Shown here: positions 2,581 to 24,924 of the stretch, in pieces | Position numbering within the stretch: position 1 is the stretch's first letter | Layout of the letters: each line of letters starts with the position of its first letter | Assembly (NCBI GenBank): GCA_044892505.1 | Contig: CM097882.1 | Location: forward strand, 449,376,001-449,440,000 | Direction of reading: 5' to 3' | Source: Schmidtea nova | Lineage: Eukaryota | DNA: 64,000 nucleotides | Translations under genes and position numbers: made by a program | The notes under the pieces: model-generated | Databases searched by the model: none | Seen by the model: the letters and a program-made list of their open reading frames with translations, nothing else | Told to the model about the DNA's origin: nothing

Positions 2581-3042
2581 ATGGAGGAAAAACTGAAAGA
2601 AATTGAAGAATTTCTCAACACAGAAAGCGAAACATTAGAAACGATTGGCAAGAAAATAAACCGATTTAGAGAGACTGAATTTCAGGAACCCACAACACAG
2701 ACTGAAGAGACGGATGAGTTAATAAAGATAACAGAAAGAACAGGTAAAATCGACATAAAGACCCGCTACAAATGGTACAGAGCACGATTAGAAAATGCAG
2801 AACTAAACATTAAGTGCAGGCAAATAGAACAACGATTAACCCCAACATACAATCGATGGAGGGCGCAGGGGGTAGAAGCAGCGAAAAAATACCGACAGTG
2901 CTATATATGTGAGGATAGCGAGATACAAATTATGTTTTTACCTTGTGGACATTTTCGCTTTTGTAAAATATGTGCCAGCAAGTGCGACCTATGTCCTATG
3001 TGCAACCTGATGATAGACGATAAAATTATTGTATATTTATAA
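2581..3042 (+). CDS. Coiled-coil plus C-terminal IAP/XIAP-type RING-HC E3 ligase (no BIR domain)
   Basis: CYICEDSEIQIMFLPCGHFRFCKICASKCDLCPMC at the extreme C-terminus, as in IAP-family RINGs; AATAAA follows the stop. Confidence 0.85.
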   Translation: MEEKLKEIEEFLNTESETLETIGKKINRFRETEFQEPTTQTEETDELIKITERTGKIDIKTRYKWYRARLENAELNIKCRQIEQRLTPTYNRWRAQGVEAAKKYRQCYICEDSEIQIMFLPCGHFRFCKICASKCDLCPMCNLMIDDKIIVYL

Positions 3043-3522
3043 TAAATAAAATTTGAATGGAATTTTATTGATTTATTGATAAGGAAATCATGGGTACAAT
3101 TGTCATATATAAATAATTTTTGAGCTACTGCAAAGTAGTCCGATAGGAATCCATTGGGAGGTACCGGTTGATCAACTTATTCAAGGTGTATAGAAAGGGG
3201 CCCATCGCAAATGTTGGAAAGTTTTTGTGATGTGATTGATCACCACATCCTGCATTAATGGACCAACGCGATCTTTTTGTATATTTTGGTTGGGGAGAGA
3301 GATAGGGAAATCTTGATGGAGTAAAGCGCGCATAGAGAAAAATAAATAAAAAGTTGAAGCAGACTGATCAGGAATAGTTATGATAGAATAAAGAGATAAA
3401 CGACAATTTTGAGAGAATAAAAGGTGCATAGTCAGCTCGCATAGAAGTAGTTATAACTCAGCTGAGAAATTTTAATCGCTAGCGAAGTTAAGAATTGTGA
3501 TTAACCGGTTAAATAAAGTTAG

Positions 3523-3727
3523 GAGATTTGTCCCTTGAAACAAAGGGTTATGAGATTTGTCCCTTGAAACAAAGGGTTAGGAGATTTGTCCCTTGAAACA
3601 AAGGGTTATGAGATTTGTCCCTTGAAACAAAGGGTTAGGAGATTTGTCCCTTGAAACAAAGGGTTATGAGATTTGTCCCTTGAAACAAAGGGCTAGGAGA
3701 TTTGTCCCTTGAAAAAAAAAAGGGTTG
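3523..3727 (+). repeat. Tandem array, 7 x 29 bp
   Basis: Unit GAGATTTGTCCCTTGAAACAAAGGGTTA(T/G) starting at 3523, 3552, 3581, 3610, 3639, 3668 and 3697; last base alternates T/G. Confidence 0.95.
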
Positions 3728-3770
3728 AGGCCAATGAGCCATATTGAATGACCTAGCTAGGCGTTATGGA

Positions 3771-4152
3771 GAGATTAAATTAAGGCCAGGAGAGCCATTG
3801 GAGAGATTAAATTGAGGCCAATAGAGCCATTTGAGAGATTAAATTAAGGCCAATAGAGCCATTTGAGAGATTAAATTAAGGCCAGGAGAGCCATTGGAGA
3901 GATTAAATTGAGGCCAATAGAGCCATTTGAGAGATTAAATTAAGGCCAATAGAGCCATTTGAGAGATTAAATTAAGGCCAAGAGAGCCATCTGAGAGATT
4001 AAATTAAGGCCAAGAGAGCCATTTGAGAGATTAAATTGGGGCCAAGAGAGCCATCTGAGAGAATAAATTGAGGCCAGGAGAGCCATTTGAGAGATTAAAT
4101 TGAGGCCAATAGAGCCATGTGAGATATAAAATTGAGGCCAGAAGAGCCATAG
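3771..4152 (+). repeat. Tandem array, about 12 x 32 bp
   Basis: Unit GAGATTAAATT(A/G)AGGCCA(GG/AT/AG)AGAGCCATT(G/T)GA with 32-bp period. Confidence 0.95.
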
Positions 4153-4762
4153 TGAATTATAGAGATATCCGGATAAATAGTAACAGGGGGAATATAGACC
4201 CATAGTATAATCGTCGACGAGATTTAGAGTAGTGCGCACCAGTAGTTAAGAGAATGCGAGTAAAGCTGATTATGCAACCTTAAGTAAAGCATGCAAGGAG
4301 AATAGTAAAAATTTGGGCTGACCGGAGCAACCGGCAGAATGAGTAAAAACGATTGCTAGCAGGGAATAATGAGTAGAGATGATAAAATAATGATAAACGA
4401 GTCAGAAAGACTCAGGGAATTAGAGCGCTCGAGCGACCAATAAATTGGGAAACTGTGGGAAAAGTAACTGATTTGATAAAACATAGATAATTATTACGAC
4501 GTAAATAGATAATTGTGACCAGTCTATAGATAATTTAAATAGACTAAAAATAAAGGGGAATCTGGGAATTGGGAAATAATGAAAACCCAGTAATAAGTAA
4601 TCCCGAAAGAAAGGGAATAAAAGCGCGACGATAACAATAATGTATCGTTGAGGACCTTTGTATTTTAGATATACAAATCAATCAAACCAACCAATCAAAC
4701 AAGAAGAATCAGAACACGATAAGAGATAAGACAGGAAAATTGAGTATACAAAAGTAATCCCG

Positions 4763-7700
4763 TTGAGAACAGGAGTAAAGAGTGTCGTAATAAAGCCAAC
4801 AGAAAAGAAAGTCGGCAGTGAGAGCAATAAAAAAGACAAAACTAGTACTACAACAAAAACAACAAAAAAGCAGAAAGCCGGCAAAGATAACAACAAGAAC
4901 CCACAAGGGAGTAAAGCGAGGAAAATAATAAGAGATAAAGCGATTATCGAAAACGATAAATTGTCAGTAGTAAGCAACAGTTCAAGTAACAAAGAAAACC
5001 AAGCAGAACCCAAAGAGAGCCAAACAAGTGAAATAGAAGTAGACGAAACTAATAACGATAATATAGAAGAATTAGAGAGTGAAGTAGAACAAGAAGTAGA
5101 AATCAACGAGAGCGATAACGATAGTATAATATCAGATCACGAAGTAATAAGAGAAACAGAAAGCGATTCAAGCTCGAGTAAAACGGAAGACGAACATAAC
5201 AACGAACTAGAAACAAGAGGAAACGAAAGTAAAATAACTCAAGACAGCGGAATTGAAATGGGTGAACCAAGAGAAGAAATAAAGGATAAATTTTCAGGAG
5301 AACCGTTTAACGGAGATGCAAGTAAATTAGAAACCTTTTTAAAAGAATTTGGCATATTCGTGGAAGTATGCAAATGGAAAGCTGAAACAACGGTAAGCAG
5401 AATTCAGTTATATTTGAAAGATAGTGCATTGGACCTATATTTGGAAGCGAAAAATGGTACCAATCCACCTACAAGCTGGACAGCGATAAAGGATTTTTTC
5501 CAACAAACATTTGGAATAAATAAAGTGCTAAGCGAGGCATTCATAGAATTTTCAATGAGGAAACAAAAGATGAATGAATCTAATGCGGTATACGCGAGCG
5601 AACTGAAAAAATTAGCAAAATCGGTATTCAAGGATGGAGGTCCAATAAACGAGGAGTTAATGGCAGCTATCTTCATAGGAGGACTAAGAAGACCTGACAT
5701 AAGAGCACAAGTTGGATGCCAAGGATGCAAAACCATAGATCAAGCGTTAGAAACAGCTAACCGATTTGAATTGCATATGATAGGAAGCGAAGGCAGAATT
5801 TATTTAGCCATGGACACAGCGCAAACAGAACCAGAAGTAAATCTCAACAATCATATTCCAAATTCGCAACAATTAAACCGACCACCCCCTCAACGAAGGA
5901 ATGAAGGAAATAAAGTGCAGAACTTTGAAAGCCAAAACAATTACAACCCTCAAAGACAAACAAAACAATGTAAAACATGCGGGAAGTTAGGACACTGGCA
6001 GCAAGAATGCTATCAAAATTTGAATTGCGGAAAATGTGGAGTTAAAGGACACTCGGAAAGCAGATGTTCTACAATAATCTGTTTTAATTGCGGACGACCT
6101 GGTCACTATTCAAGAAATTGCGGACAAAAAAGTAATCAACGAGGAAACTGGCAGAGTAATGGGAACCGACCAAATTACGGAAATCAAGCAAATACCGTAA
6201 ACCGACCAGATTATGGGAACCAACAAGTCAATAATAACAATAATCAGAACAAAACCACCCCCAAAGAAATACACTTAATGCAAGAAGTCCAAAGATTGAC
6301 GGAACTTATAAACAATACGACGAGAGGAAATCCGCAAACCAATCAACAGCAAATTAGCATGATGAGAAAAATAGAAAGCGAAAACGAACGATTGAATCGA
6401 GAAAGTCAAGCACGACACGCTCAGGAATGGGCAAGAATACAAAGAGAGGATGAACAAAAACAGCAAGAAAGAGAACGACAACCTCTAAGAATTAACATGC
6501 TAAGAGCAACAAACCAAACAGACACTCGCGAGAAAGAAACCACACTGGAAATGAATTCGATAGACCCGAATCCAGCCGACAACGAAAGTCGAAAAGAAAT
6601 AGTACAAAAAGATGAAGAAGTAGAAAAAGAAGCAGAAAAGGGAGAGGAAACCGAGATAAACCAGGAAGAGAGAAGAAAAATTTGGAAAAAAGGAATGATG
6701 GTAATCATGCCCAACGACCATATGTTTCGATTCCAATATAACGCAAAAGAAAAGGTGGAAATACTGTTCAATAAAGTAAACCAGATGATTCCAGGAGTGA
6801 CAAAACTGCCCAGAGAAGCGTTCTTACAAATAGGAGATGCACCATCAGTAAAATTAAAATTAACAGATACATGGGAAAACGTGGGAGTAACAGAGACAAA
6901 AAGAAATGTGATGAGAATTAAAGAAATAGAACCAGAAGAAATTCCACCACCAATACGTCACGAAACCCGAATCCGGCGAATATTTGAAGGAAAAATGATA
7001 AGAAGACGTTTAAAAGAGATAGACGAGTTGGGAAAGAAAATGGGAAAAGTCGAAGTAATAGAGGACAAGAGTGAACCAACACCAGAAATTGACAAAAACG
7101 AACAAGAACCAACGGAGAATATACAAGGAGAAACGAACCAAACAGCACATATTAATATGTTAAGAAATACCACCAGAGAGTTTTCCGATGAAGAAGAAGA
7201 TAGTGACATCAGTAGCCTAGCAGGAGACATATTAAATGAATCCGAAGACGAAAATAAAGAGAGAGAAGTAATAAAGACCTCAGAACCTACACAGATAAAA
7301 GTAGATGAAATCCAGAAATTATTAGATAACTCGCTAGAGGTAATATATAACGAAGAGTTCATGGACAAGAAACAATATCGGAAATTCATGAAAGCATTAC
7401 TACAAATGAACTACAAAGAATGGTTACAAGACCGGGAGGTAGACATGCTGAATCGATACGTAGGGAAATTAATAGAGGAACCACTCCTCAATTACACCAT
7501 CTCAATAATAATAAATACGTCTACACCAAGAATCTGGATCAAAACTCCATTTACAGATGATATCTACAGATGGGTAGAGGACAGACTAGGGAGCTCATAT
7601 AAAAACAAATTCATCTATTCGCAGAATAGACTCGTAAAGAAAAGAACGCACTTAGTAGAAACAGGTATATGGCCAGGAGAAATAACTCTGTTATCAATAT

Positions 7701-10700
7701 GTGATGAAAAAGAAGAAGAGAACCTACAAGAAGTTGCAAGGGAAGCAAACGCGTGCTTCGAACGGAGAATAAAACCACGGTTAGAATACGAGAAAGAACG
7801 AGTCTTACGAAAAAATCTAAATTCCCTGATAGAACAAATCATACCACAAGTCAAAAAACATAGAAAAGAGTTAATGAGAAGCGAATACGAGAAATTAAAA
7901 CGATGTATTGAGTGCATACGTGACACAAGTCACACGAGATGGTCACAAATCTCACACGATAAATTAATCGCAAAAATGGGAAAAACAATGTTCAGACAAG
8001 GGAAAATAACAGATCTAAAAATTTCGGTAGAATTACCTAATGAGGACACCAAAGAAATTGAGGTGGTAGCGGATTGCACCATTAAGGAATTAATAAATGT
8101 CATCAACGAGACACTAGTGCAAAGAGAACCAGAAGACGAATGGGAAGACGACATAATCATACAATACAACGAACATGTATTATGGGATCACGATGAGAGA
8201 CGATTATATAAAATCGGTATATGGGATAATCACCAAACAATCCACGTTATCAGAATGGACGATACACCAAGGGAAACTGCTAAAGATGAGAAAAGAGAAC
8301 GGGAACGACGGAAAGAAGTTGTGCGTAAATTACAACAAATAGTAGAAATTTATCGAAATTGGCGAATTGGGCCAGAGTGGGAAAATGTATTAGAAGAACT
8401 CAATCTCAACAGACGAATACGAACACCCGTAGAAAAACAATGGAACGAGAAAGGAAAATGTTGGGAACCAAAAGAAGGGGAATATGAAGAAGAATATAAA
8501 AGAGGAATTGAAGATGGCTGCGAACCAGAGATGGGAAGGGTCTGCATGGTGACAAGGAAAGCTACGCCAATAGACCTAGATGGACCAGAAACCGCGGCTA
8601 TGTGGCTAGAAAGGGAAAAGCAAAAAACGGAAGAATTTGTCGAAATATTAAAAACTAATGCGCACGGTAAGAGAAAAGTAATAAAGGGTCTCGCAGATTT
8701 TTTCGTGGTAAATGGGGAAGATATAACATGCTTGCGTAAAGTAGCAAAAGCAATCGCGGAATATAAAAGAGTTAACGAGTGGTGTCCGGAACAACTAGAC
8801 CACGTAATTAGGAAATGGAGAAATCAAGAATTCTCGCAAGAAATTCCACAGAAAGTACATTTAAGAATAATATATCCAAACAAGGATAAGGAAGAGCTTT
8901 GGGTAGGAATAGCAGAAAAAATTCGAGATATTAAAAAGAAATTGAGATACGAACCACCATTCCATTTACAACACCAAGGACGATCATTAGATAACAGTTT
9001 GGAAATCGGAATAACGCCAGCACAATTAGATCTCATGAATACCTTGACAGTAGAAGCAATAGCAGGTCAACCATTGAAACGTAAAGAAGAAAACCATAAA
9101 CCACACAGAAGTATAAGTACGCCAAGTCCGATGAAACCAGTACTAACGCCAGGAACAAGTTCAAGACGATCTGAGACAACACCCAGAGGAACCAGAGAAA
9201 GGACTCCACCACAACCATACGACGTGGACGAAATTTTAACGGATAGCGACGATATGATAGAAGAGTTAACCGAATTAACAAGGGAAAAGGACGATAACAT
9301 TTTCGAAAGAATACAAGAACTACCTACGACAATACAAGTAACCAACACCGGAGAAGCAGAAGTCGAAGAAGAAATAATAATAGAAGAAGTAAACGATCTA
9401 ACAGAAGACGAAACGAGAGGAGCGAATGTCGAAAATGTACAATTAACACAAGAAATGGAAAGATGGTTAGAAGAAAGAGCTAACGAACCAAGAGATGTCA
9501 CCGAAGAAACCGGACGAGCAACAAGGTTTGTGGAAATAGGTACAGGAATGGATAAACGACCTCGAGGTAGACCCAAGACAGACCCAGCAACAGTAGTTAT
9601 CAGAAATAAGGACGAAAAGAGACAAGATCAATGGGAATTATGTTTAAAGAAATTAAACAAAATCGCAGAGATGAAAGAAAAAGAGACAACACCAATATGT
9701 CAAGGGGAGGAATGGATATCGAAAACAATAATGGAACTATTGGCAATAATTGATCCGGAATTAAGAAAATACTGGCGTATAACGGAGATAAGCGAAAAGG
9801 CGAAGTCACTACACAGCGCAATCGCACCCATCTTACCGGAATTCATAAAAGAGAAGACGAAATCAAATCACTTAGACTGGCAAGGAACCACTATGTTAAT
9901 AAAGAAACTGACAGAAGGAGCGGAAACAGATAACAAATACGTAATAGCTATTGCATACACGATCTACAATCTGTTGACACTGAGTAGAGGTCGACCAAAA
10001 CCCACTGCATTAGAGAGACATATAAAAAATACCGCAAAGATTATAGCTAGAGAAATAGAACCCTACGTCATTAACAAAGGAGGATGGGAAACATTTATAA
10101 AAACTAACCAGAAGAAAACACAAGCCAAGAATATGAAAAAGAAATTCGAAAAAATATTGGAAGAGTTAGGAAAAGAACAAGCAGGAACAGGAAACGCAAA
10201 GTCATCAATGAATCTGAGTTCTATAATAATGATGATGTTGATATGGATGATTAGCACCGATAGCGCAACAGCATTCGAAGTGTTTGATTGCGACCAAATG
10301 AAGTTAGGAGAAAAGTATTCATTGAGAGGTACGGAGCAATGCAAAGATGCAACTCCGGTAGAGTTGCAAAAGATTAAAAAGGAACAATGGTACCACGTGT
10401 ATCAAGAAGCAGAACTCATAAAGACAATGGTGAACGAATGTAAAGTGCAGAAGACGAGATTCGCATTCTACTGCGGGAGAGGACATTATTCAGCAATTGT
10501 CATGCCAGGAACGGAAAGAGAACCAATCGTGTTACAAGGAGAGGATTGCGAAGCACTGTTTAAACATGGAGAAGTAACAACAAGAGATAAAATCAAGATA
10601 AGAGGAAAGCCAGGAATGATGATGCAACAGACGTACTATGTAGCAGGACGGATTACGGGAGGAGAAGGATATTGTCAAGGAGAAACCTACCCGATATTCG

Positions 10701-12052
10701 GAGTACCCGCAACCAACCTAGTAGTAATGGATACGTATATAGTCGAATTAAAAAGCTATGAAGCATTCTTCGAACCAACAACGGGAGAAATGAAAACGTT
10801 ATCCATGTGTAAAATCGACAGGAGCATGTGTCAAACGGGAATGTCAACATTAGTGTACAAACCAAAGGTGAACGAATGTCAATTACAACTGCTACAAGGA
10901 GCACAGTTCGACGAAATCCAAGGAAAAACGTTTCAGGAAGAAGACGATGACGACAAAGCTAGAGCAAAGCATCTCAAGGAAGCTTTGGAGAATAAAAGAC
11001 AATTGAAACCGGATCATAGAGAAAAACGGATAGAGATGAGAGCCACACCAACAGTGTTGATAACCACAAATCAGGATGTGGGAATGAGATTCATAAAAGG
11101 GAAAGCAACCCTTAAGTGTAGTACAACGGTATACGAAACGAATTACCCAGGAATATATGTGTCAAAACAAGAAGTGCCGAATGCGAAACCCAAAATCGAC
11201 ACAATGGATATCAAACTACACCTGTATGTGAATAATAAAATGGATTTCCTATTCCATAGAGGACAAGCCTCATTACAAAAAGTGTACTACGATCTAATAA
11301 ATAATGATTGTATACTAAATCGAGAAATACTAAAGACAAAATTGGCCGTAGCAATTACGAATCCCGATAGCGCGATGCCATTATTACCACTGAGAGAAGG
11401 ACATTTCGGAAGAGTGGTTGGAGAAGCAATGTATGTATACATCTGCGAAAAGACACACGCATCGCTAGCAGCAACAACACAGTTGAAACCTGGAACCTGT
11501 ACAAATGAGTTAGAAATCGATTACAAAGGAAAAGTACGATACGTTCAACCGGTGACGAGAATCATCAATCCACCAGGGTTTGAACCAAATCCATTCAACT
11601 GTAGTAATGCGTACGGACCGCTCTATCAGAAACCAGATGGTAAATGGGTTATGTTCCCAGGAAGATCCGAAGTGATAGCACCAAGAGAATTCGAGCTAAT
11701 GCAGTTGTCAAAGGATAGGCAATTCAGCGACGTAGATGTCTCAAACAACGGAATATATAGTCCAAAGGATTTAGAAGCAGCAAGGCAGAATATATTATTT
11801 CCAGCGAGAAGAGAAGCATTACTGTCAAATATCGTAACGATAACGGGAGGAACGAATTATCGAGAAGGACCGAATTATGAACTGTTGTTGTCACCAGCAC
11901 ACTTCAAGAAAGCCACAGAAAATATGATGAAAGCAATGTGGGGAAGATTTCTGATATTCGGACAAATGATGGCTGGAATACTGGGGGTTATATTAATAAT
12001 ACAAATCGTCAGAGTGATAATAACGCAAATGTTAGCGTGTTTCGATATCTAA
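4763..12052 (+). CDS. gag-env: Gag-accessory-Env polyprotein: capsid, 3 CCHC knuckles, 3 ubiquitin-like domains, Bcl-2-like domain, signal peptide and class III fusion glycoprotein with TM
   Basis: Capsid-like FNGDASKLETFLKEF (first ATG 5258); CX2CX4HX4C x3 (5969-6121); YVINKGGWETF (BH2-like); signal MNLSSIIMMMLIWM..ATA|FEVFDC (10208); Cys-rich ectodomain with CKVQKTRFAFYCG, GEAMYVYIC, CTNEL..QPVTRII; C-terminal hydrophobic segment. Confidence 0.85.
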   Translation: MRTGVKSVVIKPTEKKVGSESNKKDKTSTTTKTTKKQKAGKDNNKNPQGSKARKIIRDKAIIENDKLSVVSNSSSNKENQAEPKESQTSEIEVDETNNDNIEELESEVEQEVEINESDNDSIISDHEVIRETESDSSSSKTEDEHNNELETRGNESKITQDSGIEMGEPREEIKDKFSGEPFNGDASKLETFLKEFGIFVEVCKWKAETTVSRIQLYLKDSALDLYLEAKNGTNPPTSWTAIKDFFQQTFGINKVLSEAFIEFSMRKQKMNESNAVYASELKKLAKSVFKDGGPINEELMAAIFIGGLRRPDIRAQVGCQGCKTIDQALETANRFELHMIGSEGRIYLAMDTAQTEPEVNLNNHIPNSQQLNRPPPQRRNEGNKVQNFESQNNYNPQRQTKQCKTCGKLGHWQQECYQNLNCGKCGVKGHSESRCSTIICFNCGRPGHYSRNCGQKSNQRGNWQSNGNRPNYGNQANTVNRPDYGNQQVNNNNNQNKTTPKEIHLMQEVQRLTELINNTTRGNPQTNQQQISMMRKIESENERLNRESQARHAQEWARIQREDEQKQQERERQPLRINMLRATNQTDTREKETTLEMNSIDPNPADNESRKEIVQKDEEVEKEAEKGEETEINQEERRKIWKKGMMVIMPNDHMFRFQYNAKEKVEILFNKVNQMIPGVTKLPREAFLQIGDAPSVKLKLTDTWENVGVTETKRNVMRIKEIEPEEIPPPIRHETRIRRIFEGKMIRRRLKEIDELGKKMGKVEVIEDKSEPTPEIDKNEQEPTENIQGETNQTAHINMLRNTTREFSDEEEDSDISSLAGDILNESEDENKEREVIKTSEPTQIKVDEIQKLLDNSLEVIYNEEFMDKKQYRKFMKALLQMNYKEWLQDREVDMLNRYVGKLIEEPLLNYTISIIINTSTPRIWIKTPFTDDIYRWVEDRLGSSYKNKFIYSQNRLVKKRTHLVETGIWPGEITLLSICDEKEEENLQEVAREANACFERRIKPRLEYEKERVLRKNLNSLIEQIIPQVKKHRKELMRSEYEKLKRCIECIRDTSHTRWSQISHDKLIAKMGKTMFRQGKITDLKISVELPNEDTKEIEVVADCTIKELINVINETLVQREPEDEWEDDIIIQYNEHVLWDHDERRLYKIGIWDNHQTIHVIRMDDTPRETAKDEKRERERRKEVVRKLQQIVEIYRNWRIGPEWENVLEELNLNRRIRTPVEKQWNEKGKCWEPKEGEYEEEYKRGIEDGCEPEMGRVCMVTRKATPIDLDGPETAAMWLEREKQKTEEFVEILKTNAHGKRKVIKGLADFFVVNGEDITCLRKVAKAIAEYKRVNEWCPEQLDHVIRKWRNQEFSQEIPQKVHLRIIYPNKDKEELWVGIAEKIRDIKKKLRYEPPFHLQHQGRSLDNSLEIGITPAQLDLMNTLTVEAIAGQPLKRKEENHKPHRSISTPSPMKPVLTPGTSSRRSETTPRGTRERTPPQPYDVDEILTDSDDMIEELTELTREKDDNIFERIQELPTTIQVTNTGEAEVEEEIIIEEVNDLTEDETRGANVENVQLTQEMERWLEERANEPRDVTEETGRATRFVEIGTGMDKRPRGRPKTDPATVVIRNKDEKRQDQWELCLKKLNKIAEMKEKETTPICQGEEWISKTIMELLAIIDPELRKYWRITEISEKAKSLHSAIAPILPEFIKEKTKSNHLDWQGTTMLIKKLTEGAETDNKYVIAIAYTIYNLLTLSRGRPKPTALERHIKNTAKIIAREIEPYVINKGGWETFIKTNQKKTQAKNMKKKFEKILEELGKEQAGTGNAKSSMNLSSIIMMMLIWMISTDSATAFEVFDCDQMKLGEKYSLRGTEQCKDATPVELQKIKKEQWYHVYQEAELIKTMVNECKVQKTRFAFYCGRGHYSAIVMPGTEREPIVLQGEDCEALFKHGEVTTRDKIKIRGKPGMMMQQTYYVAGRITGGEGYCQGETYPIFGVPATNLVVMDTYIVELKSYEAFFEPTTGEMKTLSMCKIDRSMCQTGMSTLVYKPKVNECQLQLLQGAQFDEIQGKTFQEEDDDDKARAKHLKEALENKRQLKPDHREKRIEMRATPTVLITTNQDVGMRFIKGKATLKCSTTVYETNYPGIYVSKQEVPNAKPKIDTMDIKLHLYVNNKMDFLFHRGQASLQKVYYDLINNDCILNREILKTKLAVAITNPDSAMPLLPLREGHFGRVVGEAMYVYICEKTHASLAATTQLKPGTCTNELEIDYKGKVRYVQPVTRIINPPGFEPNPFNCSNAYGPLYQKPDGKWVMFPGRSEVIAPREFELMQLSKDRQFSDVDVSNNGIYSPKDLEAARQNILFPARREALLSNIVTITGGTNYREGPNYELLLSPAHFKKATENMMKAMWGRFLIFGQMMAGILGVILIIQIVRVIITQMLACFDI

Positions 12053-13129
12053 AAGAGAGAAAAGAAAGTGAATTGGAAAATGGTAGTAGGATTTTTACCA
12101 TTCCTTGCGAAAACGATGGTGTTACACGGTCACTCAAAAGATATCCACCGAATAAAAAGACTCCTGAAGATATTAGCAAAAATGAAGGGAACAGATGAAG
12201 AAGTAGGACGCAAATTTAAAAAGATAATGAACGACGAACAAGCAAGACAACAGCTCAAGAGAGAAAGAAAAGGTTTATGGGAGAGGATGAAAGGATATAA
12301 AACCCAAAATGATTCGAGTGACGACGATGATGACGATGACGACTATAAGGGAGGACAAGTGTATAAGAACCAAGCACCACAATACATCGAAAAGAATCCA
12401 GCCGACGCATGGAAATGTTACGCGCCTCCACCAACAATGTATCAAGAACCACTACAAGGAGGAAAAAATAGCACGATGCAAATGATGCCAATGACAAATG
12501 TATACCCCATGATACCAGAAGATTATAAAATGAGAAGATGTAGAAGCGTAGATCCACAAGGAGATACACACACGATCGCAGTAATGTCATCAAACACAGG
12601 TCCAGTGTTAACCACGACAATAGAAATTAACGGAAGAGAAATCGAAGCAATGATCGACACGGGAGCAAACATTTCCGCCATCGACATCAAATGGATACCA
12701 CAAGAGCAAAGACGGGAAATAGAAAGAACAAACGTCCATGTAATTGCATGTAGCAAAGAAGTTGTAGAAGTAGCAGGAAGATGGTGGGTAAAAATACGCC
12801 ACTTAAACACGGAAATCGATACCTACGTAGCAGTTATACCAGCATTAAGCGTGCCTTGCATTATCGGAACAGATTTGATGCCAGCATTATTTAAAGAGAT
12901 TGTAATCGATCTCGGAACAATGAGACTAAAAGATCGCACCGGACAAATATGCGCAATAGAAGCCAAAGTGACAAGTTCAAAGCAAATGATCATACCCGCA
13001 AGAAAGGAGAAAATATGTTACGTAAAAATAGATCCGACAATCCAAGGTGATATGATTTTCGAACCAAGTAAGAGATTCGAGAAAAGAAAAGCGTTGCCAA
13101 TGGCAAGAGGATTTTGTCAACATAAATGA
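12053..13129 (+). CDS. pro: Env cytoplasmic tail plus retropepsin aspartic protease; same frame as the upstream ORF, separated by a single TAA
   Basis: AMIDTGANISAI (DTG at 12656) and CIIGTDL motifs; 12068-4763 is a multiple of 3; sequence reads CFDI*KREKKVNW. Confidence 0.85.
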   Translation, partial: KREKKVNWKMVVGFLPFLAKTMVLHGHSKDIHRIKRLLKILAKMKGTDEEVGRKFKKIMNDEQARQQLKRERKGLWERMKGYKTQNDSSDDDDDDDDYKGGQVYKNQAPQYIEKNPADAWKCYAPPPTMYQEPLQGGKNSTMQMMPMTNVYPMIPEDYKMRRCRSVDPQGDTHTIAVMSSNTGPVLTTTIEINGREIEAMIDTGANISAIDIKWIPQEQRREIERTNVHVIACSKEVVEVAGRWWVKIRHLNTEIDTYVAVIPALSVPCIIGTDLMPALFKEIVIDLGTMRLKDRTGQICAIEAKVTSSKQMIIPARKEKICYVKIDPTIQGDMIFEPSKRFEKRKALPMARGFCQHK

Positions 13130-16100
13130 TAATGGAGAAATCCCAATAAATATGGTAAATTTCGACGAGGAGGATAAAATAATCTACGAAAACGAAAGAC
13201 TAGGTAAACTAACCCCAATGATGGATATCGAACTACCAATAGAAGGAGCAGGGAAAGACAAAGAACCAACCTGGAATATTGACAGTGAATTATTAAATGA
13301 GGACCAAAAGAAACAGTTAGAAAAACTGCTGATAGAGTATAAGGATATATTCGCAGCATCCGATTTAGATCTAGGAACATGTGATGTCACACTACATACA
13401 ATACCATTAACAGATGAAACACCAATTGCATTAAGGCCGTACAAATTAGCGGAAGCACAGAAGGCAGTAGCAGAAGCAGAAGTGAAGAAAATGTTGGATG
13501 CAGAAGTAATCGAACCAAGTTGTTCACCCTGGCAATTTCCAGTGGTAATGGTGAAGAAGAAAGACGGAACACAGAGATTCTGTATAGATTACCGAAGATT
13601 GAATACAGTGACAAAACGAGATACTTACCCATTACCAGACATCAACGAGATGCTACTAACATTACAAGGAGCAGCATATTTTACGTCGTTAGATCTGAAA
13701 AGCGGATATTGGCAAATAAAAATGAAGGAAGAAGATAAAGAGAAAACTGCCTTTACCATCGGTAGAGACCTATATCAATTTCGAAAGATGCCATTTGGAT
13801 TAACGAACGCACCAGCATCATTTCAGAGATGCATGAATTTCGTCACCCATGGAATAAAGCAGTGCATGGTCTACATCGACGATTTATTAATTTATTCTAG
13901 TACATTCGAACAACACATACAAGACATTCGAGATGTATTCGTTAGACTTAGACAATGGAAGTTAAAACTCAAGCCATCCAAGTGTGACTGGGCAAAAGAA
14001 AAGGTTACATTTTTAGGACATATAGTGTCAGCAAAAGGAAAAGAACCGGATCCTAGAAACATCGACAAGGTAAAAGAATGTCCAGTACCAAAAACAATAA
14101 CCCAAATACAAGAATTTCTCGGATTATGTGGATATTATAGGAAGTTTATAAAAGATTACGCCGGAATCGCAAAGCCTATACAGGAACTGGTAAAGAAAGA
14201 TGTATCATTCATATGGGGAGATGAACAACAAACAGCCTTTGAAACGTTGAGAGATAAATTGATAACCGCACCCATATTGGTACACCCAGACTTTAAGAAG
14301 CCATTCCTACTTGCAACAGATGCAAGCGGATATGCAGCAGGAGCAGTATTAGGACAATACGATGACGAAGGAAAAGAACGTGTAATCGGATATTATAGCC
14401 GGACATTCAAAAAGCATGAGAAAAATTATTCAGTGACAGAACGGGAAGCATTAGCGATTATACTAGCAATAAAACATTTTAAATATTTATTATGGGGTCA
14501 CATCATCTGCATAACAACAGATCACCAACCGCTTGTATGGTTAGGACAGCACAAGGAAACATCTAGTAGACTAATGCGATGGGCAATGCAGTTACAGGAG
14601 TACTCACCGGACATAAAATTTAAATCAGGACGAGCAAATGCGAATGCAGACTGTATGTCAAGACTGACATTTCCGGAATTAACCGATCCTGATGTACAAC
14701 GAATTTGTGTATTAATAGCAGAAGATTTAGATTTTAGCGAGCTTAAGAAAGATCAACAAGAAGACAAAGAATTAGGACAAATCATAGAGTTCCTAACATC
14801 TCGAAACATGGAGGTATTCAAAGAGAATAAGGAATTAAAGGAACATATAGGAAAATATCAACATCGCTACATAATAAATAAAGGATGGTTGTTAATACAA
14901 GACGGAGAAAAGAGATTGATGTGTTTACCGGAAAACAGAAGGAAAGAGATAATGATCCAGTACCATGATGGGAAATTAGGAGGCCATATGTCCGAGAAGA
15001 AGACAATAAATCGTATGAGACAAAAATATTATTGGCGAACAATGGAAGAAGATATAAAAGAATGGATTAAAAATTGTCTAACTTGTGCAACCAGAAAGGA
15101 TAGTGGGAAGAAATGGAAGAACCCGCTACAACCAATGCCGATACCAGCAGAGCCAATGACAACTATAGCAATGGACGTAATAGGACCATTACCGGAAAGT
15201 CTAAACGGAAATATTTATATATTAGTGATAACAGATTATCTGACAAAATTCCCGGAAGCATTTGCCATGCAAGACCAAAAAGCAAAAACTGTAGCAAAAA
15301 TTTTAGTGGAAGAAATATGTTGCAGATACGGAACCCCAAAACAAATACTCACAGACCAAGGAACTAATTTTATGAGCGAGCTATTGAACGAGGTAACAAA
15401 CTATTTCAGAATAGCAAAATTGAGAACTTCACCATATCACCCGCAAACGAATGGACAAACGGAGCGATTCAATGGTACATTGATTAGAATGTTATCAAAT
15501 TACGTCAGCAGACACCAAACTGATTGGGACGAATACATAAAATTATGTTTAATGGCATACCGAATGTCGATACATGCAGCAACAAAACTAAGCCCATTTC
15601 AACTTATGTATGGAAGAGAATGCAACATGCCCATAGATTTAGAGTATCAGCCACCATTATCGCAATATATGGAAGACGACGACTACGTAACCAAATTCAA
15701 AGAAAGAATGCAGGAAATATGGAAAACGGCAGAACTCAACATTAAATTTTATCAGGAAAGTTATAAGGATTTACACGACCAAAAGAAAAATGTAAAAGCA
15801 AACGATCTAAAACCAGGAGATTGGGTGATAATAGAAACTCCCGAAATAATACCAGGAACTGTTAAGAAACTCCAAAGACCTGGAAGAGGACCTTATGAAA
15901 TTATATACAAAAAGGACAATAATGTCAAAGTTAAGCTAATAAATCGACCGTTAATACGACCCATATATGTAAACACTTGCAGATGTAAGAAAGTACCTAA
16001 AACGATAACTACAACACCAGAGAATCGAATAATAACCAGATCACAAACAGCCAGGATAAATATGCTCAGAGCTAATGCAACTGAAGACGACAAAGCAGAA

Positions 16101-19100
16101 ATAAGGCAAAAAGAAATCAGAAATAAAGAAATTATATTGAAGGCGAGAGAGATAATGGGAAGATGGCATGTTAGAGACGAAGTAGGCATATCAAGGGATA
16201 TTAGACATATAATTAGCCGTTACGCACAAGGATTACCAACCGAACCAATTATTTCTGAATTATTGGAAAAAATCCCTGAAATACTCTTATTGAAAGATGT
16301 AGGAGGACAACCAGCCTTACATAATGCGATAGAGTGTAAAAACATTGAAAGAGCAAAAGAATTTCTAAAAATCGCAAAAGAAACAAACCAAAACTTGGAC
16401 GTAGGGAATCGGGAACAAGAAACTCCATTAATGACAGCCGCAATCCACCAAGCAGATAAAGAAATGATAGACCTATTGATAAAAGCTCATTTCAGTTGGA
16501 CAGAACGAGATAGAGAAGACAAAACAGTGCTAAATCACGTAATATGGAGTTCTCACCAACCAATGCTGAAATACATAATAGCTAACTCCACTTGGGAGAT
16601 AGACGAACTAGTTAAAAGAGACATTATCAAAGAGGCAATCAAAATTGGTAAATGCAACACGATCCGTAAGTTAATCAAATGGAAACGACCAGAAGATGAT
16701 ACATGGGTCTTAGACATAAACGAAGTATACAGCGAAGGACAAAACGCACTGTTAAGATACCTTTTGAAATTTACTTGTGATCAGAAGACATTACTAACCT
16801 TATTAGACAGAGGAAACATAAACATCACAAAGAATGAAGAAGAATACAAATTCGATAAAGAGAAGGAAGCCTTATTCAATAAGATTAGGAAATGGTGTGC
16901 GAAACCACTTGACAAACTAATAACATACAAAGACATAAACAATTTTAACGAGAAATACCAGACAATAGTAAGTGAGTACGAGGAATTAGTAAAAATCTTA
17001 AACCATCCCGAAAAATGCAAACAGGTTTTAGAGAAAAAAGAAAGAGAAAGTAACAAGAAACTCACACCACTCTTCAAAGCAGAAGCACCATACCAAGCTA
17101 GACTAGATGCGATACAAGAAAAAGCAAAAGAATTGTTACCGGAATTCGAGAATAGTAAACATGCACTGGAAATACTCGGTGCATTAGTTGAAAAAGTACA
17201 CGCATACGCAAAAGGAACTTACAACGGAAACGACATAGTAATAATAAAAAAGGAGATGCCAGTAACATTTTTACTACCAAAGGACGGAATAATGCCCATA
17301 CATAGAGCTCTACGAAATGGCAAAGATAGAAAAGTAATGGAAATTGCAAGAGTAATGCAAAATTGCGGAAGCAATATGAATATGATAGACGAGAAAGGAG
17401 ATACACTTATGGTATTTGCAGCAAGGGCCAAAACGAAAACAAAGGTATTAGAGGAACTATACAAAGCAGGTGCAGGACTTACAGGAAAGACAGATAAAGA
17501 TAATTCGATATTGGATGTAGCATTATTAACACACAATTGGGAAATGGTCAATTTCATTAAAACCGTCCCAAATCAGGAAGAAATAGATCACCTAACTGAT
17601 ACGGTCAAGAAACCCAGTGTACTAGCAATGATGAACAACGTCGAACTAACAGAATCAATACTTACGTGGATAAATCCTAATACTAACGAACCAGCATTCA
17701 GGATTAATAAATTTACAGAACATAACCAAAACTGGTGTATAAGAAGTGCCTTAATAACGTATAAATGGCCAGAGATATTGAAGATGTTTATGGAAAGAAA
17801 GGATCTAAGAATCACAACCAGCCCGAAAGAAGAAAAATACACAGGCAAATGGAAAGAATTGATGAAGACATACATCAACAATTGGATCAAGGCCAAAAAG
17901 GAAATCTTGGAATATAAATCCACTAACAAAGTAATACCGGAGCAGGTAGAAACACAAGAATTTGAGGCAAGCAATCTAACGACATTAGCATATGCAAAAT
18001 TAATAGAAGAAATCAATGTCGAGGACGACATTTTCGACGAGCCAGGGGGAGATGACAACACAGATAGTGACGACGATAACAACTCAGAAAATTCAAGCGA
18101 TCACGAACCACCCGATAAAGAGGAAAACGAGAGAAAAGACAAGAAACGAGACAAGGAAGGAAAGAAAGGTGAAGACGAAAAACAAAGAGATGAAGAGAGA
18201 GAACAAGGAACAAACGACCAAGGAGATAAAAATGACACCCAAAGAACAGGTTATAAATCAACCATAAAACCATTCTTCAAACCAGAATTACTATTACTAA
18301 CAATGATTATAACGTTAATTAATCCAAGTCAGGGAATGACATGTGAAGAAAGGGCAATAATACAAATAAAAAACGCAAAAGGAATCGAACGAGTATGTTG
18401 GTCGAAAAAGGACAAAATCACGGAACAAAATAGCCCGATGGATTGCAGAATCTCAAAACACGAGCAAGAGATCATAGAGATCAATGACTTAGATCTAGAT
18501 ACCTGGTACAAAATATGCACCGTTAGAAAACAAAAACATCCAAGATCACACAACACAATCGCATGTGCAAAATACCAAACACCTAAAGCAGCCATGACAA
18601 TACAACAGTCACCCAAAGGAGATTACATCATCGGAAAATGTGGAAGAACAGAGACACAGAGAACAGAAAATAAAAAACCCCAGGCAATAGATAAGCAAAC
18701 AACACCAACCCTACGAATTACAATAGAAAGGCCCGAAACAAGAATTGCCACAAACGAAACCGAAAGAGTGTCTTACCAAATGGAAGTATTATGCTTAGCA
18801 CTCATACTAATAATAATAAAACGATTAGAGGAAGGAATAGAAATTGAAACTATGACAATAACAGAAGTGGAAGATACACAGAACACTAACATAAAATGTT
18901 GGGCGAGGAATAACGAGGAAATCGGCGTAAATGAAATAAGGAAAAGTCGAAAACCCACAACAAACAAAGTAATTAAAGTATCCGAAGTAAGAGCAGACAA
19001 GACGTACAAACTATGCCTATTAGAAAAAGAGACAAACAAGAAAGGTACCACAAAATGTAAAACATTCCAACCTGGAGAAGTAATAAAGTTCAGAAGGAGA

Positions 19101-21722
19101 ACGAGGAAGAGAAATAAACAAATCAAACAGAAAATAAACATAACATTAGAAATAAAAGAGATAGAACCAAACGTGAAAGGAGTATGCTGGAGGAAGTACG
19201 AAAAAGAAACAAATGAAAGAAAGACACCACAATGTCGAACAAGCACAGGAGCAACGACGATACAAATAAAAGGTTTAGAAAGTAAACAAACTTATGAAAT
19301 ATGTCTCGTAAAGAAAAATGATCAGATAACGATAAACGACCTAGAATGCGGAATATACACCACTTCATCCGGAACAAGAACTAAAACGATAACACGAAAA
19401 AATAAAAGAAGACAACGAAACAAAGGGAAACCGAAGTACACCACTACCTTTAAAAACAATAAACAACCGATAAGCCAAGAAGTTACGACAAAACCCGAGA
19501 AAAAGACATCAGCAACTCTAACATTATGGAAAATAGAGAATAAAACATTAGAAATATGTTGGATAATAGTTCAGAAACATATAAGAAGACAATCAAGAGA
19601 GTGCAGAAAAACAAATAAAGAAATCAAGATCGAAAAACTACAATTTAATAGCGAGTACGAAGTATGTACAATAGAAAAAACGGACGCACTAGGAAACCAA
19701 CAAGAAAGATGCGAAACCTACTATACACCAGCGAACGCAACATCAAAAGGAATAACAAGGAAACTCGAATTCAGGGAACTAAGCCAAACGAATGAACAAA
19801 TGGACGTAGAAAAAACAATAACCGACCCTCAAGCAAAATGGACACCCGAAGAAGTTATCAAGGAAGTCAAAAGAAAGCAAGAGGAACGGGAACAATTAAT
19901 GAGAAAACTAAAGGGACAATACGGAATAATGTTCAACCAAAGCGAATCTATACAAACAGACGAGAATAAAGAAATTAAAGAACTAATTGGCTTAGGAATA
20001 TTAACAGCGACCATACCAGTAATAATCGCGTTATCAGCTATATGGATACGCAAGATAAACCCAAAGAAATCGGTAACCCAATGGACAAATAGAGACAGTA
20101 CAAGCCATGGAGTGGAAATGCTAGAAGAAGAAGCACGAGAAGAACCAAAAAAGAAAGAAGCAAAAAGCGGAAAACTAGGAATAAACAACAAAGACAAGGA
20201 AATAAAAGAGATTAAAGGAGAAGAGAAAAAATATGAAAGGCGAACCAGAAGCCTACCGCAGAGTTCAACATGGTTGAGTCTAACAATAATATTGACATTA
20301 ATTAATAGGGAAGAAGCAATAAACCCACAGACAGGGATAAAAGTAATAAATGTCCAGGAAGTCGAGAAAATATGTTGGTATAGAGAAGATGAACCAATTG
20401 GAGAAAATAACCCACTAAAATGCATAATCAGAAAATCCGACCAGGATATCGTACGAATAGAAGAAATGGATGGAGGAACCATGCATCGGATATGCATAAT
20501 AGAAAAGGAAAAGAAGTCGGGACTACCTAAGACAGTCGTATGCCAGAAATATGAAACGCCTAGACTTGAATGGTATAGAGTAAAACCAACAAAGAAAGAA
20601 ATCAAAAACACAATAGATCAACCAGCAACTCAGATAAAAAACACAACGGATAAACCAGGAGAAGGAGAGAAAAGCACCAATAAAACGAGAGAAAGAATAT
20701 CACCCCAACAGGAGTGCGTATGCATAGCATTAATACTAGCAATGTCCAAACGTATCGATAAAGGAATAATAATAGAACAAATGGCCATAACAATAAGGAA
20801 AACAAGTAGCAACAAACTATGCTGGGGAACATACAACGAACCAAGGAAGGAATACCAAGTTCAGACAAGCGACGAATCACGAACAAACAAGGAAATCGAA
20901 ATACAAGAAATACAAATGAATGAAGAAGGAAGTATATGTATCTGGGAGAAAGGAATCCAAGAGGGAATAGAGCATTGCAAGACATTCCAAAAAGGAGAGA
21001 TACTGAAATTCGATGAAGAAGAATTAACAAGGACAGAAAGAACTCTGACATTAACAGGACTCGATCAGACAGTTAAAGGAATATGTTGGACAAAGCATAA
21101 CCCAGAAGGGGAAGAAGACAACCTAACCCACTGTAGAGAAATAAAGAATAAAGAAAAAGTCGAATTAAAGAAAATGGAAGTAAATAGGACATACGCGATA
21201 TGTACCTTCACCAGAAAAGGTTCAGAAAAACCAGAATGCGGATTATATCATATCTCAGAGAAACTACAACAACAGATCGAACCAGGAAACGTGGAAAACC
21301 GAACAAAAGAAAATAACGTCAAAAAACTACTAAATCGCCATTGGTCTACACAAGAAGTAATGAACAAAGTTAAGAGTCAAATACAGAAAGAGAAGAAGCC
21401 AGAGGCTCAAACCCAAAATGAGATAAAAGCGAACCAGAATAAAAGAGAAACAAACAGTGGAAAAACAATAATAGGATTAATGAGTATAGGAATATTAATA
21501 GCATATGGAATACTGACGACAAGCATAATAGTATATTGGAGATACAGAAAGAGAAACAAAGCGACAGCCATACAATGGCCAGATATCAAAATCGTGAAAC
21601 TAGGAATAGAAATACCAGAGGAGATACAGAAAGAATTTCAAAGAAGAACGAAAGGTAAAGAATTCTGGAAACAAATAGAAGATGAAGAACGATACGAAGA
21701 AAAGACGATAATGATGATATAG
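13116..21722 (+). CDS. pol: Pol (RT, RNase H, integrase) fused to ankyrin repeats and two FN3-like/TM cassettes; entered by a +1 shift near 13112-13115
   Basis: YIDD (13872), LATDAS, H-x6-H..CxxC, MDVIG/TDQG/TERFN triad, GPY motif; then ankyrin-like TPLMTAA, PALHNAI, PIHRAL; seven CW...L..xxYxIC...C modules; TMs near 19983-20048 and 21468-21540. Confidence 0.9.
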   Translation, partial: VNINDNGEIPINMVNFDEEDKIIYENERLGKLTPMMDIELPIEGAGKDKEPTWNIDSELLNEDQKKQLEKLLIEYKDIFAASDLDLGTCDVTLHTIPLTDETPIALRPYKLAEAQKAVAEAEVKKMLDAEVIEPSCSPWQFPVVMVKKKDGTQRFCIDYRRLNTVTKRDTYPLPDINEMLLTLQGAAYFTSLDLKSGYWQIKMKEEDKEKTAFTIGRDLYQFRKMPFGLTNAPASFQRCMNFVTHGIKQCMVYIDDLLIYSSTFEQHIQDIRDVFVRLRQWKLKLKPSKCDWAKEKVTFLGHIVSAKGKEPDPRNIDKVKECPVPKTITQIQEFLGLCGYYRKFIKDYAGIAKPIQELVKKDVSFIWGDEQQTAFETLRDKLITAPILVHPDFKKPFLLATDASGYAAGAVLGQYDDEGKERVIGYYSRTFKKHEKNYSVTEREALAIILAIKHFKYLLWGHIICITTDHQPLVWLGQHKETSSRLMRWAMQLQEYSPDIKFKSGRANANADCMSRLTFPELTDPDVQRICVLIAEDLDFSELKKDQQEDKELGQIIEFLTSRNMEVFKENKELKEHIGKYQHRYIINKGWLLIQDGEKRLMCLPENRRKEIMIQYHDGKLGGHMSEKKTINRMRQKYYWRTMEEDIKEWIKNCLTCATRKDSGKKWKNPLQPMPIPAEPMTTIAMDVIGPLPESLNGNIYILVITDYLTKFPEAFAMQDQKAKTVAKILVEEICCRYGTPKQILTDQGTNFMSELLNEVTNYFRIAKLRTSPYHPQTNGQTERFNGTLIRMLSNYVSRHQTDWDEYIKLCLMAYRMSIHAATKLSPFQLMYGRECNMPIDLEYQPPLSQYMEDDDYVTKFKERMQEIWKTAELNIKFYQESYKDLHDQKKNVKANDLKPGDWVIIETPEIIPGTVKKLQRPGRGPYEIIYKKDNNVKVKLINRPLIRPIYVNTCRCKKVPKTITTTPENRIITRSQTARINMLRANATEDDKAEIRQKEIRNKEIILKAREIMGRWHVRDEVGISRDIRHIISRYAQGLPTEPIISELLEKIPEILLLKDVGGQPALHNAIECKNIERAKEFLKIAKETNQNLDVGNREQETPLMTAAIHQADKEMIDLLIKAHFSWTERDREDKTVLNHVIWSSHQPMLKYIIANSTWEIDELVKRDIIKEAIKIGKCNTIRKLIKWKRPEDDTWVLDINEVYSEGQNALLRYLLKFTCDQKTLLTLLDRGNINITKNEEEYKFDKEKEALFNKIRKWCAKPLDKLITYKDINNFNEKYQTIVSEYEELVKILNHPEKCKQVLEKKERESNKKLTPLFKAEAPYQARLDAIQEKAKELLPEFENSKHALEILGALVEKVHAYAKGTYNGNDIVIIKKEMPVTFLLPKDGIMPIHRALRNGKDRKVMEIARVMQNCGSNMNMIDEKGDTLMVFAARAKTKTKVLEELYKAGAGLTGKTDKDNSILDVALLTHNWEMVNFIKTVPNQEEIDHLTDTVKKPSVLAMMNNVELTESILTWINPNTNEPAFRINKFTEHNQNWCIRSALITYKWPEILKMFMERKDLRITTSPKEEKYTGKWKELMKTYINNWIKAKKEILEYKSTNKVIPEQVETQEFEASNLTTLAYAKLIEEINVEDDIFDEPGGDDNTDSDDDNNSENSSDHEPPDKEENERKDKKRDKEGKKGEDEKQRDEEREQGTNDQGDKNDTQRTGYKSTIKPFFKPELLLLTMIITLINPSQGMTCEERAIIQIKNAKGIERVCWSKKDKITEQNSPMDCRISKHEQEIIEINDLDLDTWYKICTVRKQKHPRSHNTIACAKYQTPKAAMTIQQSPKGDYIIGKCGRTETQRTENKKPQAIDKQTTPTLRITIERPETRIATNETERVSYQMEVLCLALILIIIKRLEEGIEIETMTITEVEDTQNTNIKCWARNNEEIGVNEIRKSRKPTTNKVIKVSEVRADKTYKLCLLEKETNKKGTTKCKTFQPGEVIKFRRRTRKRNKQIKQKINITLEIKEIEPNVKGVCWRKYEKETNERKTPQCRTSTGATTIQIKGLESKQTYEICLVKKNDQITINDLECGIYTTSSGTRTKTITRKNKRRQRNKGKPKYTTTFKNNKQPISQEVTTKPEKKTSATLTLWKIENKTLEICWIIVQKHIRRQSRECRKTNKEIKIEKLQFNSEYEVCTIEKTDALGNQQERCETYYTPANATSKGITRKLEFRELSQTNEQMDVEKTITDPQAKWTPEEVIKEVKRKQEEREQLMRKLKGQYGIMFNQSESIQTDENKEIKELIGLGILTATIPVIIALSAIWIRKINPKKSVTQWTNRDSTSHGVEMLEEEAREEPKKKEAKSGKLGINNKDKEIKEIKGEEKKYERRTRSLPQSSTWLSLTIILTLINREEAINPQTGIKVINVQEVEKICWYREDEPIGENNPLKCIIRKSDQDIVRIEEMDGGTMHRICIIEKEKKSGLPKTVVCQKYETPRLEWYRVKPTKKEIKNTIDQPATQIKNTTDKPGEGEKSTNKTRERISPQQECVCIALILAMSKRIDKGIIIEQMAITIRKTSSNKLCWGTYNEPRKEYQVQTSDESRTNKEIEIQEIQMNEEGSICIWEKGIQEGIEHCKTFQKGEILKFDEEELTRTERTLTLTGLDQTVKGICWTKHNPEGEEDNLTHCREIKNKEKVELKKMEVNRTYAICTFTRKGSEKPECGLYHISEKLQQQIEPGNVENRTKENNVKKLLNRHWSTQEVMNKVKSQIQKEKKPEAQTQNEIKANQNKRETNSGKTIIGLMSIGILIAYGILTTSIIVYWRYRKRNKATAIQWPDIKIVKLGIEIPEEIQKEFQRRTKGKEFWKQIEDEERYEEKTIMMI

Positions 21723-22204: not shown

Positions 22205-22296
22205 ATAAATAAAGCGGAAAACTGTAAATATGTAAAAATAAAAACAAGAAAAACCAAAAATAAATGACAAGTCGAATGTATATATTATTGTAGAAA

Positions 22297-24848: not shown

Positions 24849-24924
24849 ACGTGCGAAAAACCCAGTGTAAATAAATTATGTAAAATAAAAAGTGTCAAGC
24901 TGTATTGACCAATGTATAAAAGAG

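Follow-up and report, generated by a model that had tools for sequence, protein, structure and literature searches.

The genome of the planarian Schmidtea nova contains, in a stretch of 64,000 nucleotides (assembly GCA_044892505.1, contig CM097882.1, positions 449,376,001 to 449,440,000 of the forward strand; hereafter the window), a retroelement in which the envelope gene (env) lies between gag and the protease. This raises the question whether such an order belongs to the element or is an accident of the locus, and how an envelope protein could be made from it. The original prediction, read from the DNA of the window, placed Gag, an accessory stretch, a signal peptide, an ectodomain, a transmembrane helix, a tail, the protease and Pol in this order in one reading frame from 4,763 to 13,129, with Env co-translated with Gag. 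To judge from its sequence, the copy in the window is damaged and belongs to a Burro-like family of Ty3/gypsy long terminal repeat (LTR) elements that has amplified recently. We consider it probable (about 0.75) that intact copies encode Gag, a Bcl-2-like domain, a predicted fusogen, the protease, Pol, ankyrin repeats and two fibronectin type III (FN3)-like proteins in one frame, likely as a polyprotein threaded through the endoplasmic reticulum (ER) and cut by signal peptidase and its own protease. The parts of this frame are listed here with the basis of each assignment, dN/dS being the ratio of non-synonymous to synonymous variants and RT the reverse transcriptase.

4,730–5,257, + strand: open codons ahead of the first AUG, weakly constrained (dN/dS 0.53)
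5,258–6,139, + strand: Gag, capsid and three CCHC zinc knuckles at 5,969, 6,026 and 6,080 (Retrotrans_gag E 1.9e-4; zf-CCHC)
6,140–9,706, + strand: accessory stretch of ~3.5 kb with recurring motifs resembling protease sites (dN/dS 0.17)
9,707–10,141, + strand: Bcl-2-like domain, directly ahead of the signal peptide (four-sequence profile)
10,208–10,273, + strand: predicted internal signal peptide, h-region at 10,223–10,252 (hydropathy; small -3/-1 residues)
10,274–11,941, + strand: Env ectodomain with 14 Cys, well supported as class III of chuvirus/gB type (Pfam, fold searches, variant counts)
11,966–12,022, + strand: Env transmembrane helix (hydropathy)
12,050–12,052, + strand: premature stop of the window copy only (absent from all 35 sister copies)
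12,053–12,580, + strand: Env tail, including a second, conserved hydrophobic helix at 12,080–12,109, and linker to the protease (cross-family conservation, constraint)
12,581–12,910, + strand: retropepsin protease, DTG at 12,656 (RVP E 2.3e-8)
13,100–13,125, + strand: frame break, private to the window copy, not a frameshift programmed in the family (different frame in all 35 sister copies)
13,551–15,950, + strand: RT (YIDD at 13,872), RNase H and integrase in Ty3/gypsy order (Pfam)
16,290–17,560, + strand: ankyrin repeats (Ank_2 E 1.4e-11)
18,288–20,045, + strand: predicted type I membrane protein 1, with signal peptide, four Cys-bearing FN3-like repeats and transmembrane helix (hydropathy, fold model)
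20,271–21,722, + strand: predicted type I membrane protein 2, with signal peptide, three FN3-like repeats, transmembrane helix, tail and natural stop (paralogue of protein 1)

Gene order in sister copies and related families

A search of the same genome with the Env-protease junction gave 40 scored matches at 96–100% identity from 920 candidates, and 35 of the 39 best non-self matches form the set of sister copies. The order of landmarks was identical in all 35 for the landmarks present, six copies being without some of them. Env and protease shared one open reading frame (ORF) in 33 of these copies and gag through integrase did so in 20, while in 13 the frame ran from gag to the last codon, with a length of 5,641–5,685 codons (~5,490 if counted from the first AUG, as determined for six copies). 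The frame of the intact copies reaches the equivalent of window position 21,722, ~1,900 codons past Pol, without a frameshift. Two other anchors were used as well: all 30 env-centred loci, self included, were colinear with the window, 29 of them across the whole of 9,400–13,000, and when the last FN3 unit was taken as query, 27 of its 107 matches were free of stops and formed part of an open frame of 5,641 codons or longer (hand count).

In the window copy, the ORF at 4,730–12,052 closes just behind the Env transmembrane helix, the protease follows in frame beyond the stop (12,053–13,129), and pol is shifted to a different frame from ~13,110. Neither a programmed readthrough of the stop at 12,050 nor a programmed frameshift between Gag and Pol near 13,110 is tenable, since the stop and the frame break are private to this copy. 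Because intact copies hold a single ORF from gag to the end, a Gag/Pol frameshift is absent from the whole family. The predicted order of domains was therefore upheld by Pfam and hydropathy and, as env did not lie 3' of pol in other copies, it is a trait of the family; the single reading frame, in contrast, is broken twice in the window copy. The true unit is also larger than the proposed one, as position 4,763 is a TTG, the first AUG stands at 5,258, and the frame of intact copies extends to 21,722. Co-translation of Env with Gag would follow from the single ORF of the intact copies, but is interrupted by the stop in the window copy. Intact copies have ~175–198 open codons before the first AUG, and all 34 copies compared retain the TTG at 4,763; a non-AUG N-terminal extension upstream of 5,258 is possible.

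Other families were located by a genome search with PF24664 (Monjiviricetes fusion glycoprotein), and seven regions of a divergent group were examined, in which Env is 37% and RT 54% identical to the window element. All seven had zinc knuckle, Env, RT, RNase H and integrase in one frame and in the same order; six held a single ORF of 3,393–3,401 codons, and four had a recognisable protease between Env and RT. In the ENA proteins P0001 and P0002 (38% Env identity), gag or a Bcl-2-like domain, Env, a transmembrane helix and then protease domains are joined in one chain. Behind the Env tail, P0001 and P0002 carry two and three tandem retropepsin domains, respectively. Searches for homologues at near length and in phages, metagenome contigs and viral contigs, in which distant relatives are under-sampled, found none. 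By these comparisons, the order gag-env-protease-pol is old and common to the families. That env was placed between gag and protease by local rearrangement or misassembly has next to no probability: the window copy does have two lesions of its own, but the same order recurs in the sister copies, the divergent regions and the two ENA proteins, the LTRs are intact and a target-site duplication is present. This explanation is refuted by the sister copies, the divergent group and the env-centred loci.

Class and constraint of the envelope protein

The likeness to chuvirus and herpes gB-like class III glycoproteins, originally proposed from the cysteine pattern, was borne out by Pfam and Foldseek. 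The ectodomain matched PF24664 with an E value of 2.1e-71 (score 241, cut-off 27 bits). An AlphaFold model built from seven sequences had a mean predicted local distance difference test (pLDDT) score of 45.6, with a beta-hairpin region at 70–84 (residues 52–163) and a long low-confidence helix (331–362). In Foldseek searches with the Env model, all 35 listed PDB matches were class III proteins (34 herpes gB and one baculovirus GP64; best E 6.7e-6), and chu-, qin- and xinmo-type glycoproteins led the matches in a viral library (E 2.5e-21 to 7e-16, 16–19% identity). There was no F-type Env among the Pfam or listed fold matches; Env has two basic motifs, and class III matches dominate. In the sequence atlas, Env matched a PF24664 cluster (0.90; 167 features), which we take as no more than a lead. 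In a wide VIA search with the whole Env model, only the transmembrane helix was matched, to generic coiled coils, and no class III entry was listed; a PDB search by Env sequence gave no Env match, only protease matches from the tails of P0001 and P0002. Profile homology to PF24664, the confident hairpin region with its low-confidence helix and the listed PDB matches, all gB or GP64, make a class III Env of chuvirus/gB type well supported.

For dN/dS, variants were scored against the commonest codon per column in the 35 copies plus the window, and only variants found in at least two copies were counted. The ratio was 0.04 for the Env ectodomain (11 non-synonymous and 129 synonymous variants), compared to 0.02 for the transmembrane plus following helix, 0.02 for the protease, 0.03 for RT-RNase H and 0.04 for the integrase; looser values were obtained for the accessory linker (0.17), the ankyrins (0.16) and the FN3 units (0.24 and 0.45). 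Each of the 14 Env cysteines is conserved in all or all but one of 35–36 rows. Env was under purifying selection as strong as that on RT during the recent burst. Since the amino-acid constraint on Env is at the level of RT, the need for an open frame toward Pol is no sufficient explanation, and selection of this strength argues for a use of Env in the spreading of the element. By analogy with Drosophila gypsy, the most likely role of Env is to carry enveloped particles from cell to cell. An Env retained for an intracellular role, as an assembly tether or in the fusion of neighbouring cells, with no spread as free particle, appears unlikely: transmission through env is unknown outside Drosophila according to the part of PMC13524379 drawn on here, and the ectodomain has one N-glycan sequon only, but for a mere tether there would be no reason to hold the entire Cys-rich ectodomain at such a ratio, with 14 near-invariant cysteines.

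Predicted membrane units at the end of the reading frame

The FN3 units occupy the usual position of env, after the integrase. They are paralogous (~30% identical), have basic residues C-terminal to the transmembrane helix, and C, W, C and C are common to all seven repeats. These repeats had no match in the Pfam scan. The model of repeat 3 reached a pLDDT of 81; Foldseek placed FN3 on top at E 0.014, which is not significant, and the top VIA matches were FN3 at Z 6.6–7.8, below the caution level of Z 8 (best root-mean-square deviation (rmsd) 2.6, 70 of 79 residues aligned). The sequence-atlas leads were all fn3, at 0.84 or less. On this model, the repeats are predicted to have FN3 beta-sandwich topology. 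Short hydrophobic segments in the two units (18,786–18,818 and 20,715–20,744) resemble the units' own signal peptides and are possibly relics of a signal-plus-repeat duplication.

The ORF of the divergent family also ends in a signal, ~335 residues and a transmembrane helix. Because this ectodomain has no detectable likeness to the FN3 repeats of the window element, a common origin of the two is left unsupported; the presence of a signal-ectodomain-transmembrane unit at the ORF end in both families may nevertheless reflect a general design of GAG-ENV-POL elements. A separate ORF follows pol in the divergent family (L131:7324-8772). It has no Pfam match at E 0.001, and by eye it resembles what we take to be a DEDD 3'-5' exonuclease.

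Predicted membrane threading of the polyprotein

The residues at -3/-1 of the predicted signal peptide are small in 34 of 34 copies, and a signal-like segment stands before Env in every family examined, the sister families and P0001/P0002 included. We propose that Gag through the Bcl-2-like part would be made in the cytosol and that the internal signal peptide would then start translocation, its cleavage leaving Gag attached to the membrane. The Env ectodomain would fold in the lumen, the Env transmembrane helix would halt transfer, and the protease and Pol would remain cytosolic, attached to the Env tail, while two further signal/transmembrane pairs would display the FN3 ectodomains. Crowding at the membrane could bring the proteases together, with cuts at recurring I-x-M-type motifs. 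The outcome would be Gag, Env and Pol in a 1:1:1 ratio on the same membrane, with budding coupled to packaging and no need for either a frameshift or a spliced RNA for env. In the structural polyproteins of flavi- and alphaviruses, capsid, internal signal, glycoprotein and enzymes are likewise parts of one membrane-threaded chain cut by signal peptidase; unlike the element, these viruses have class II fusogens and no DNA integration, and they serve as a working analogy only.

The motif I[NSH]M[LMV][RN] has five occurrences, at domain junctions, compared to 0.02 in shuffles, and related I-x-M-type motifs lie at the capsid/knuckle, protease/RT, RNase H/integrase and integrase/ankyrin junctions. 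As a lead, we regard them as candidate sites of the element's own protease.

The least certain step of the proposed topology is the helix behind the Env transmembrane segment, which would line the membrane and leave protease and Pol cytosolic. If it were instead a second membrane span, protease and Pol would be lumenal and need another synthesis route. The helix is conserved across families and constrained, and signal/transmembrane arrangements vary among gB-type Env (PMC13524379), but it is short, contains Pro, is flanked by K/R on both sides (5 and 3) and stays under the hydropathy thresholds of the other spans. As RT and integrase must, moreover, act in the cytosol and nucleus, we hold a second span to be highly improbable.

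Distinctly unlikely, in our view, is a synthesis of Env also or mainly from a spliced or internally initiated message, by which it would not be made 1:1 with Gag. The 22-residue signal peptide opens with an AUG at 10,208, and summed contig depth over 10,632–11,959 was ~2x that of the flanks in four runs of unrecorded kind. However, this AUG is not positionally kept in P0001 or in the sister family L134, contig depth is unfit for ranking genes, and contigs from four runs cannot show splicing or level. A canonical-splice joint landing before env was found at none of the 15 contig joints inspected (of 58), and the 30 best env-centred loci, colinear as described above, included no env-only derivative.

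Several points speak against the membrane-threaded polyprotein or loosen its single parts. The sister copies were selected by similarity of the Env-protease junction, a bias toward the order gag-env-protease, which is countered by the env-centred and FN3-unit anchors. The Env model is poor, and Foldseek TM-scores were 0.09–0.26 (0.09–0.14 for the PDB matches) at an rmsd of 24–52 Å, so that the fold was assigned from local matches together with Pfam. The dN/dS values are a crude count with no tree. Signal peptide and transmembrane helices were called by a hydropathy script, not by SignalP or DeepTMHMM, and the topology changes if the helix behind the Env transmembrane segment or one of the two short hydrophobic segments in the FN3 units spans the membrane. 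The protease-site motif was defined after the fact from the same sequences and is scarce in the second family, and its site at 13,146 agrees with the window in just 8 of 35 copies. Translation, cleavage and stoichiometry of the polyprotein, as well as release of Env by signal peptidase and infectivity, are what we infer from sequence.

It is doubtful, if possible, that the family extends this scheme to an endogenous enveloped virus, in which a gB-like fusogen would work with the faster-evolving FN3 proteins as receptor-binding or triggering partner (the role of gH/gL), all in one 5,500-residue chain with three signal-peptidase cuts and with Gag and Pol already present at the same membrane. No gH/gL-type partner genes were recognised in the window element.

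Boundaries, accessory genes and neighbouring elements

The element is ~29.7 kb long, and window positions 1–28,822 belong to it. Outside the large frame, it comprises the following parts.

1–2,249, + strand: 3' part of the 5' LTR (whole LTR ~3,124 bp, starting 874 bp upstream of the window)
2,256–2,273, + strand: primer-binding site, complementary to the 3' end of tRNA-Pro(TGG) (18 nt, matched to host tRNA genes)
2,581–3,042, + strand: accessory ORF with C-terminal C3HC4 RING (zf-C3HC4_3 E 3.4e-11)
3,489–4,246, no strand: tandem repeats of 29 bp and 32 bp in the leader
22,294–23,673, + strand: full-length TRAF-like protein (RING, Zn fingers, MATH) in a separate ORF (MATH_2 E 5.5e-21)
23,760–25,494, + strand: two more accessory ORFs, for a coiled coil and a small transmembrane protein
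25,699–28,822, + strand: 3' LTR (alignment with 5' LTR)

The LTR pair aligns over 3,125 bp at 99.97% identity; the LTRs have TG...CA termini, and a 4-bp target-site duplication is present on both sides. Together with the primer-binding site and the domain order protease-RT-RNase H-integrase, these ends place the element among the Ty3/gypsy LTR retrotransposons (Metaviridae). The order obtained with Pfam was Gag with zinc knuckles, PF24664, retropepsin, RT, RNase H, integrase and ankyrins, with RING and TRAF as separate ORFs. The LTR holds ORFs of 159 codons (521–1,000) and 202 codons (1,173–1,781), the latter with no match in the Pfam scan. Host tRNA genes stand in a tandem array with a period of 308 bp (G000:C1 from ~459,609,000; 899 pattern matches genome-wide), a sampled stretch of which (L180) had four called tRNA-Pro(TGG) and one with another anticodon. 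Copies of the window family are spaced 26.7 kb apart, about one element minus one LTR, at G000:C3:133.81-133.85 Mb, and copies of a sister family lie at a steady spacing of 15.86 kb at G000:C1:547.59-547.62 Mb; the regular spacing in both families suggests tandem elements with LTRs in common.

Within the large frame, the Pfam scan of the accessory stretch at 6,140–9,706 yielded no credible match. The Bcl-2-like assignment comes from a profile of the window segment and three sister-family segments, which matched Bcl-xL at E 4.6e-4 over the C-terminal motif; the sister-family segments matched PF00452 at E 9.5e-5, 5.7e-4 and 0.088, and the window segment alone matched nothing by phmmer or Pfam. 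The TRAF-like ORF and the Bcl-2-like and RING domains point to a possible interference with host death or immune signalling.

Further downstream, the window contains a second gypsy element (~38,198–60,529), inside which sits a Polinton/Maverick-like element (42,013–57,121) with 1.1-kb inverted termini, a type B DNA polymerase and an A32-like ATPase. This insertion splits the second gypsy element, setting RT (to 41,905) apart from RNase H-integrase (from 57,301).

Relation to published elements

The original prediction took env to lie 3' of pol in retroviruses and errantiviruses and regarded the architecture as unusual. This premise is incomplete and the architecture is not new: in-frame env between gag and pol has already been published for planarian Burro elements (PMC6431247), and elements with env before pol are also described in PMC13524379. 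The headline architecture is a confirmation, not a discovery. According to the Burro section of PMC6431247, the gypsy-like Burro/GYPSM1 elements are ~30 kb long and encode one huge polyprotein (4,873 and 5,140 aa). Their features are tandem repeats, Gag with CCHC knuckles, a BCL2-like domain, an env that lies between this domain and the protease in the same frame, and ankyrin, TRAF/MATH and RING domains. The window family shares this plan, with a length of 29.7 kb, LTRs of 3.1 kb, the long ORF of the 13 intact copies, ankyrin, TRAF/MATH and RING domains and, at family level, env in frame between the Bcl-2-like domain and the protease, which is broken in the window copy. It differs in that its Env is of class III chuvirus/gB type, its TRAF is a separate downstream ORF, its ORF is longer (~5,490 aa from the first AUG) and it has predicted post-integrase FN3 membrane units, which go unmentioned in that section. 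The same section links Burro env to gypsy Env, with matches to mononegavirus glycoproteins noted there too. For BIR, dUTPase-like and Ubi/SUMO-like segments, there was no Pfam match in the segments scanned, HHpred having been used in PMC6431247 instead.

The part of PMC13524379 consulted reports gB-type GAG-ENV-POL elements from Platyhelminthes, Nematoda and Bryozoa, including six from Schmidtea mediterranea, Smed_errantivirus_1-6, which have, like the window element, a Ty3/gypsy pol, a gB-type class III env before pol and many intact copies. By eye, and for the sequences in that part, Smed_errantivirus_5 has the Env that comes nearest to that of the window, and Smed_errantivirus_1 is a close counterpart of the sister family L131. 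In contrast to the window family, these elements are described as three ORFs, the main text being without the words "polyprotein", "in-frame", "frameshift" and "Burro", and the same part lists no primer tRNA for the Smed elements, whereas a tRNA-Pro site was found in the window element. Chuvirus, qinvirus and xinmovirus glycoproteins (PF24664) and herpes gB are the best structural matches of the Env model; unlike them, at 16–19% identity, this Env sits within a retroelement polyprotein.

The literature search found nothing on signal-peptidase processing of such a polyprotein, nor a reading of the missing Gag/Pol frameshift as 1:1:1 synthesis. It also found no FN3 units in such elements, although the supplements of Grohme 2018 and Repbase, outside the search, may note them; the predicted FN3-type pair of surface proteins at the end of the frame is likely a new detail.

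A Burro-like element with a gB/chuvirus-type class III Env joins two published lines (PMC6431247, PMC13524379). How gB-type elements enter cells without gD/gH/gL is a question posed in the consulted part of PMC13524379, and the predicted FN3 membrane proteins are a candidate answer to it. A retroelement that produced Gag, Env and Pol at 1:1:1 with neither frameshift nor splicing would assemble its particles by an unusual route.

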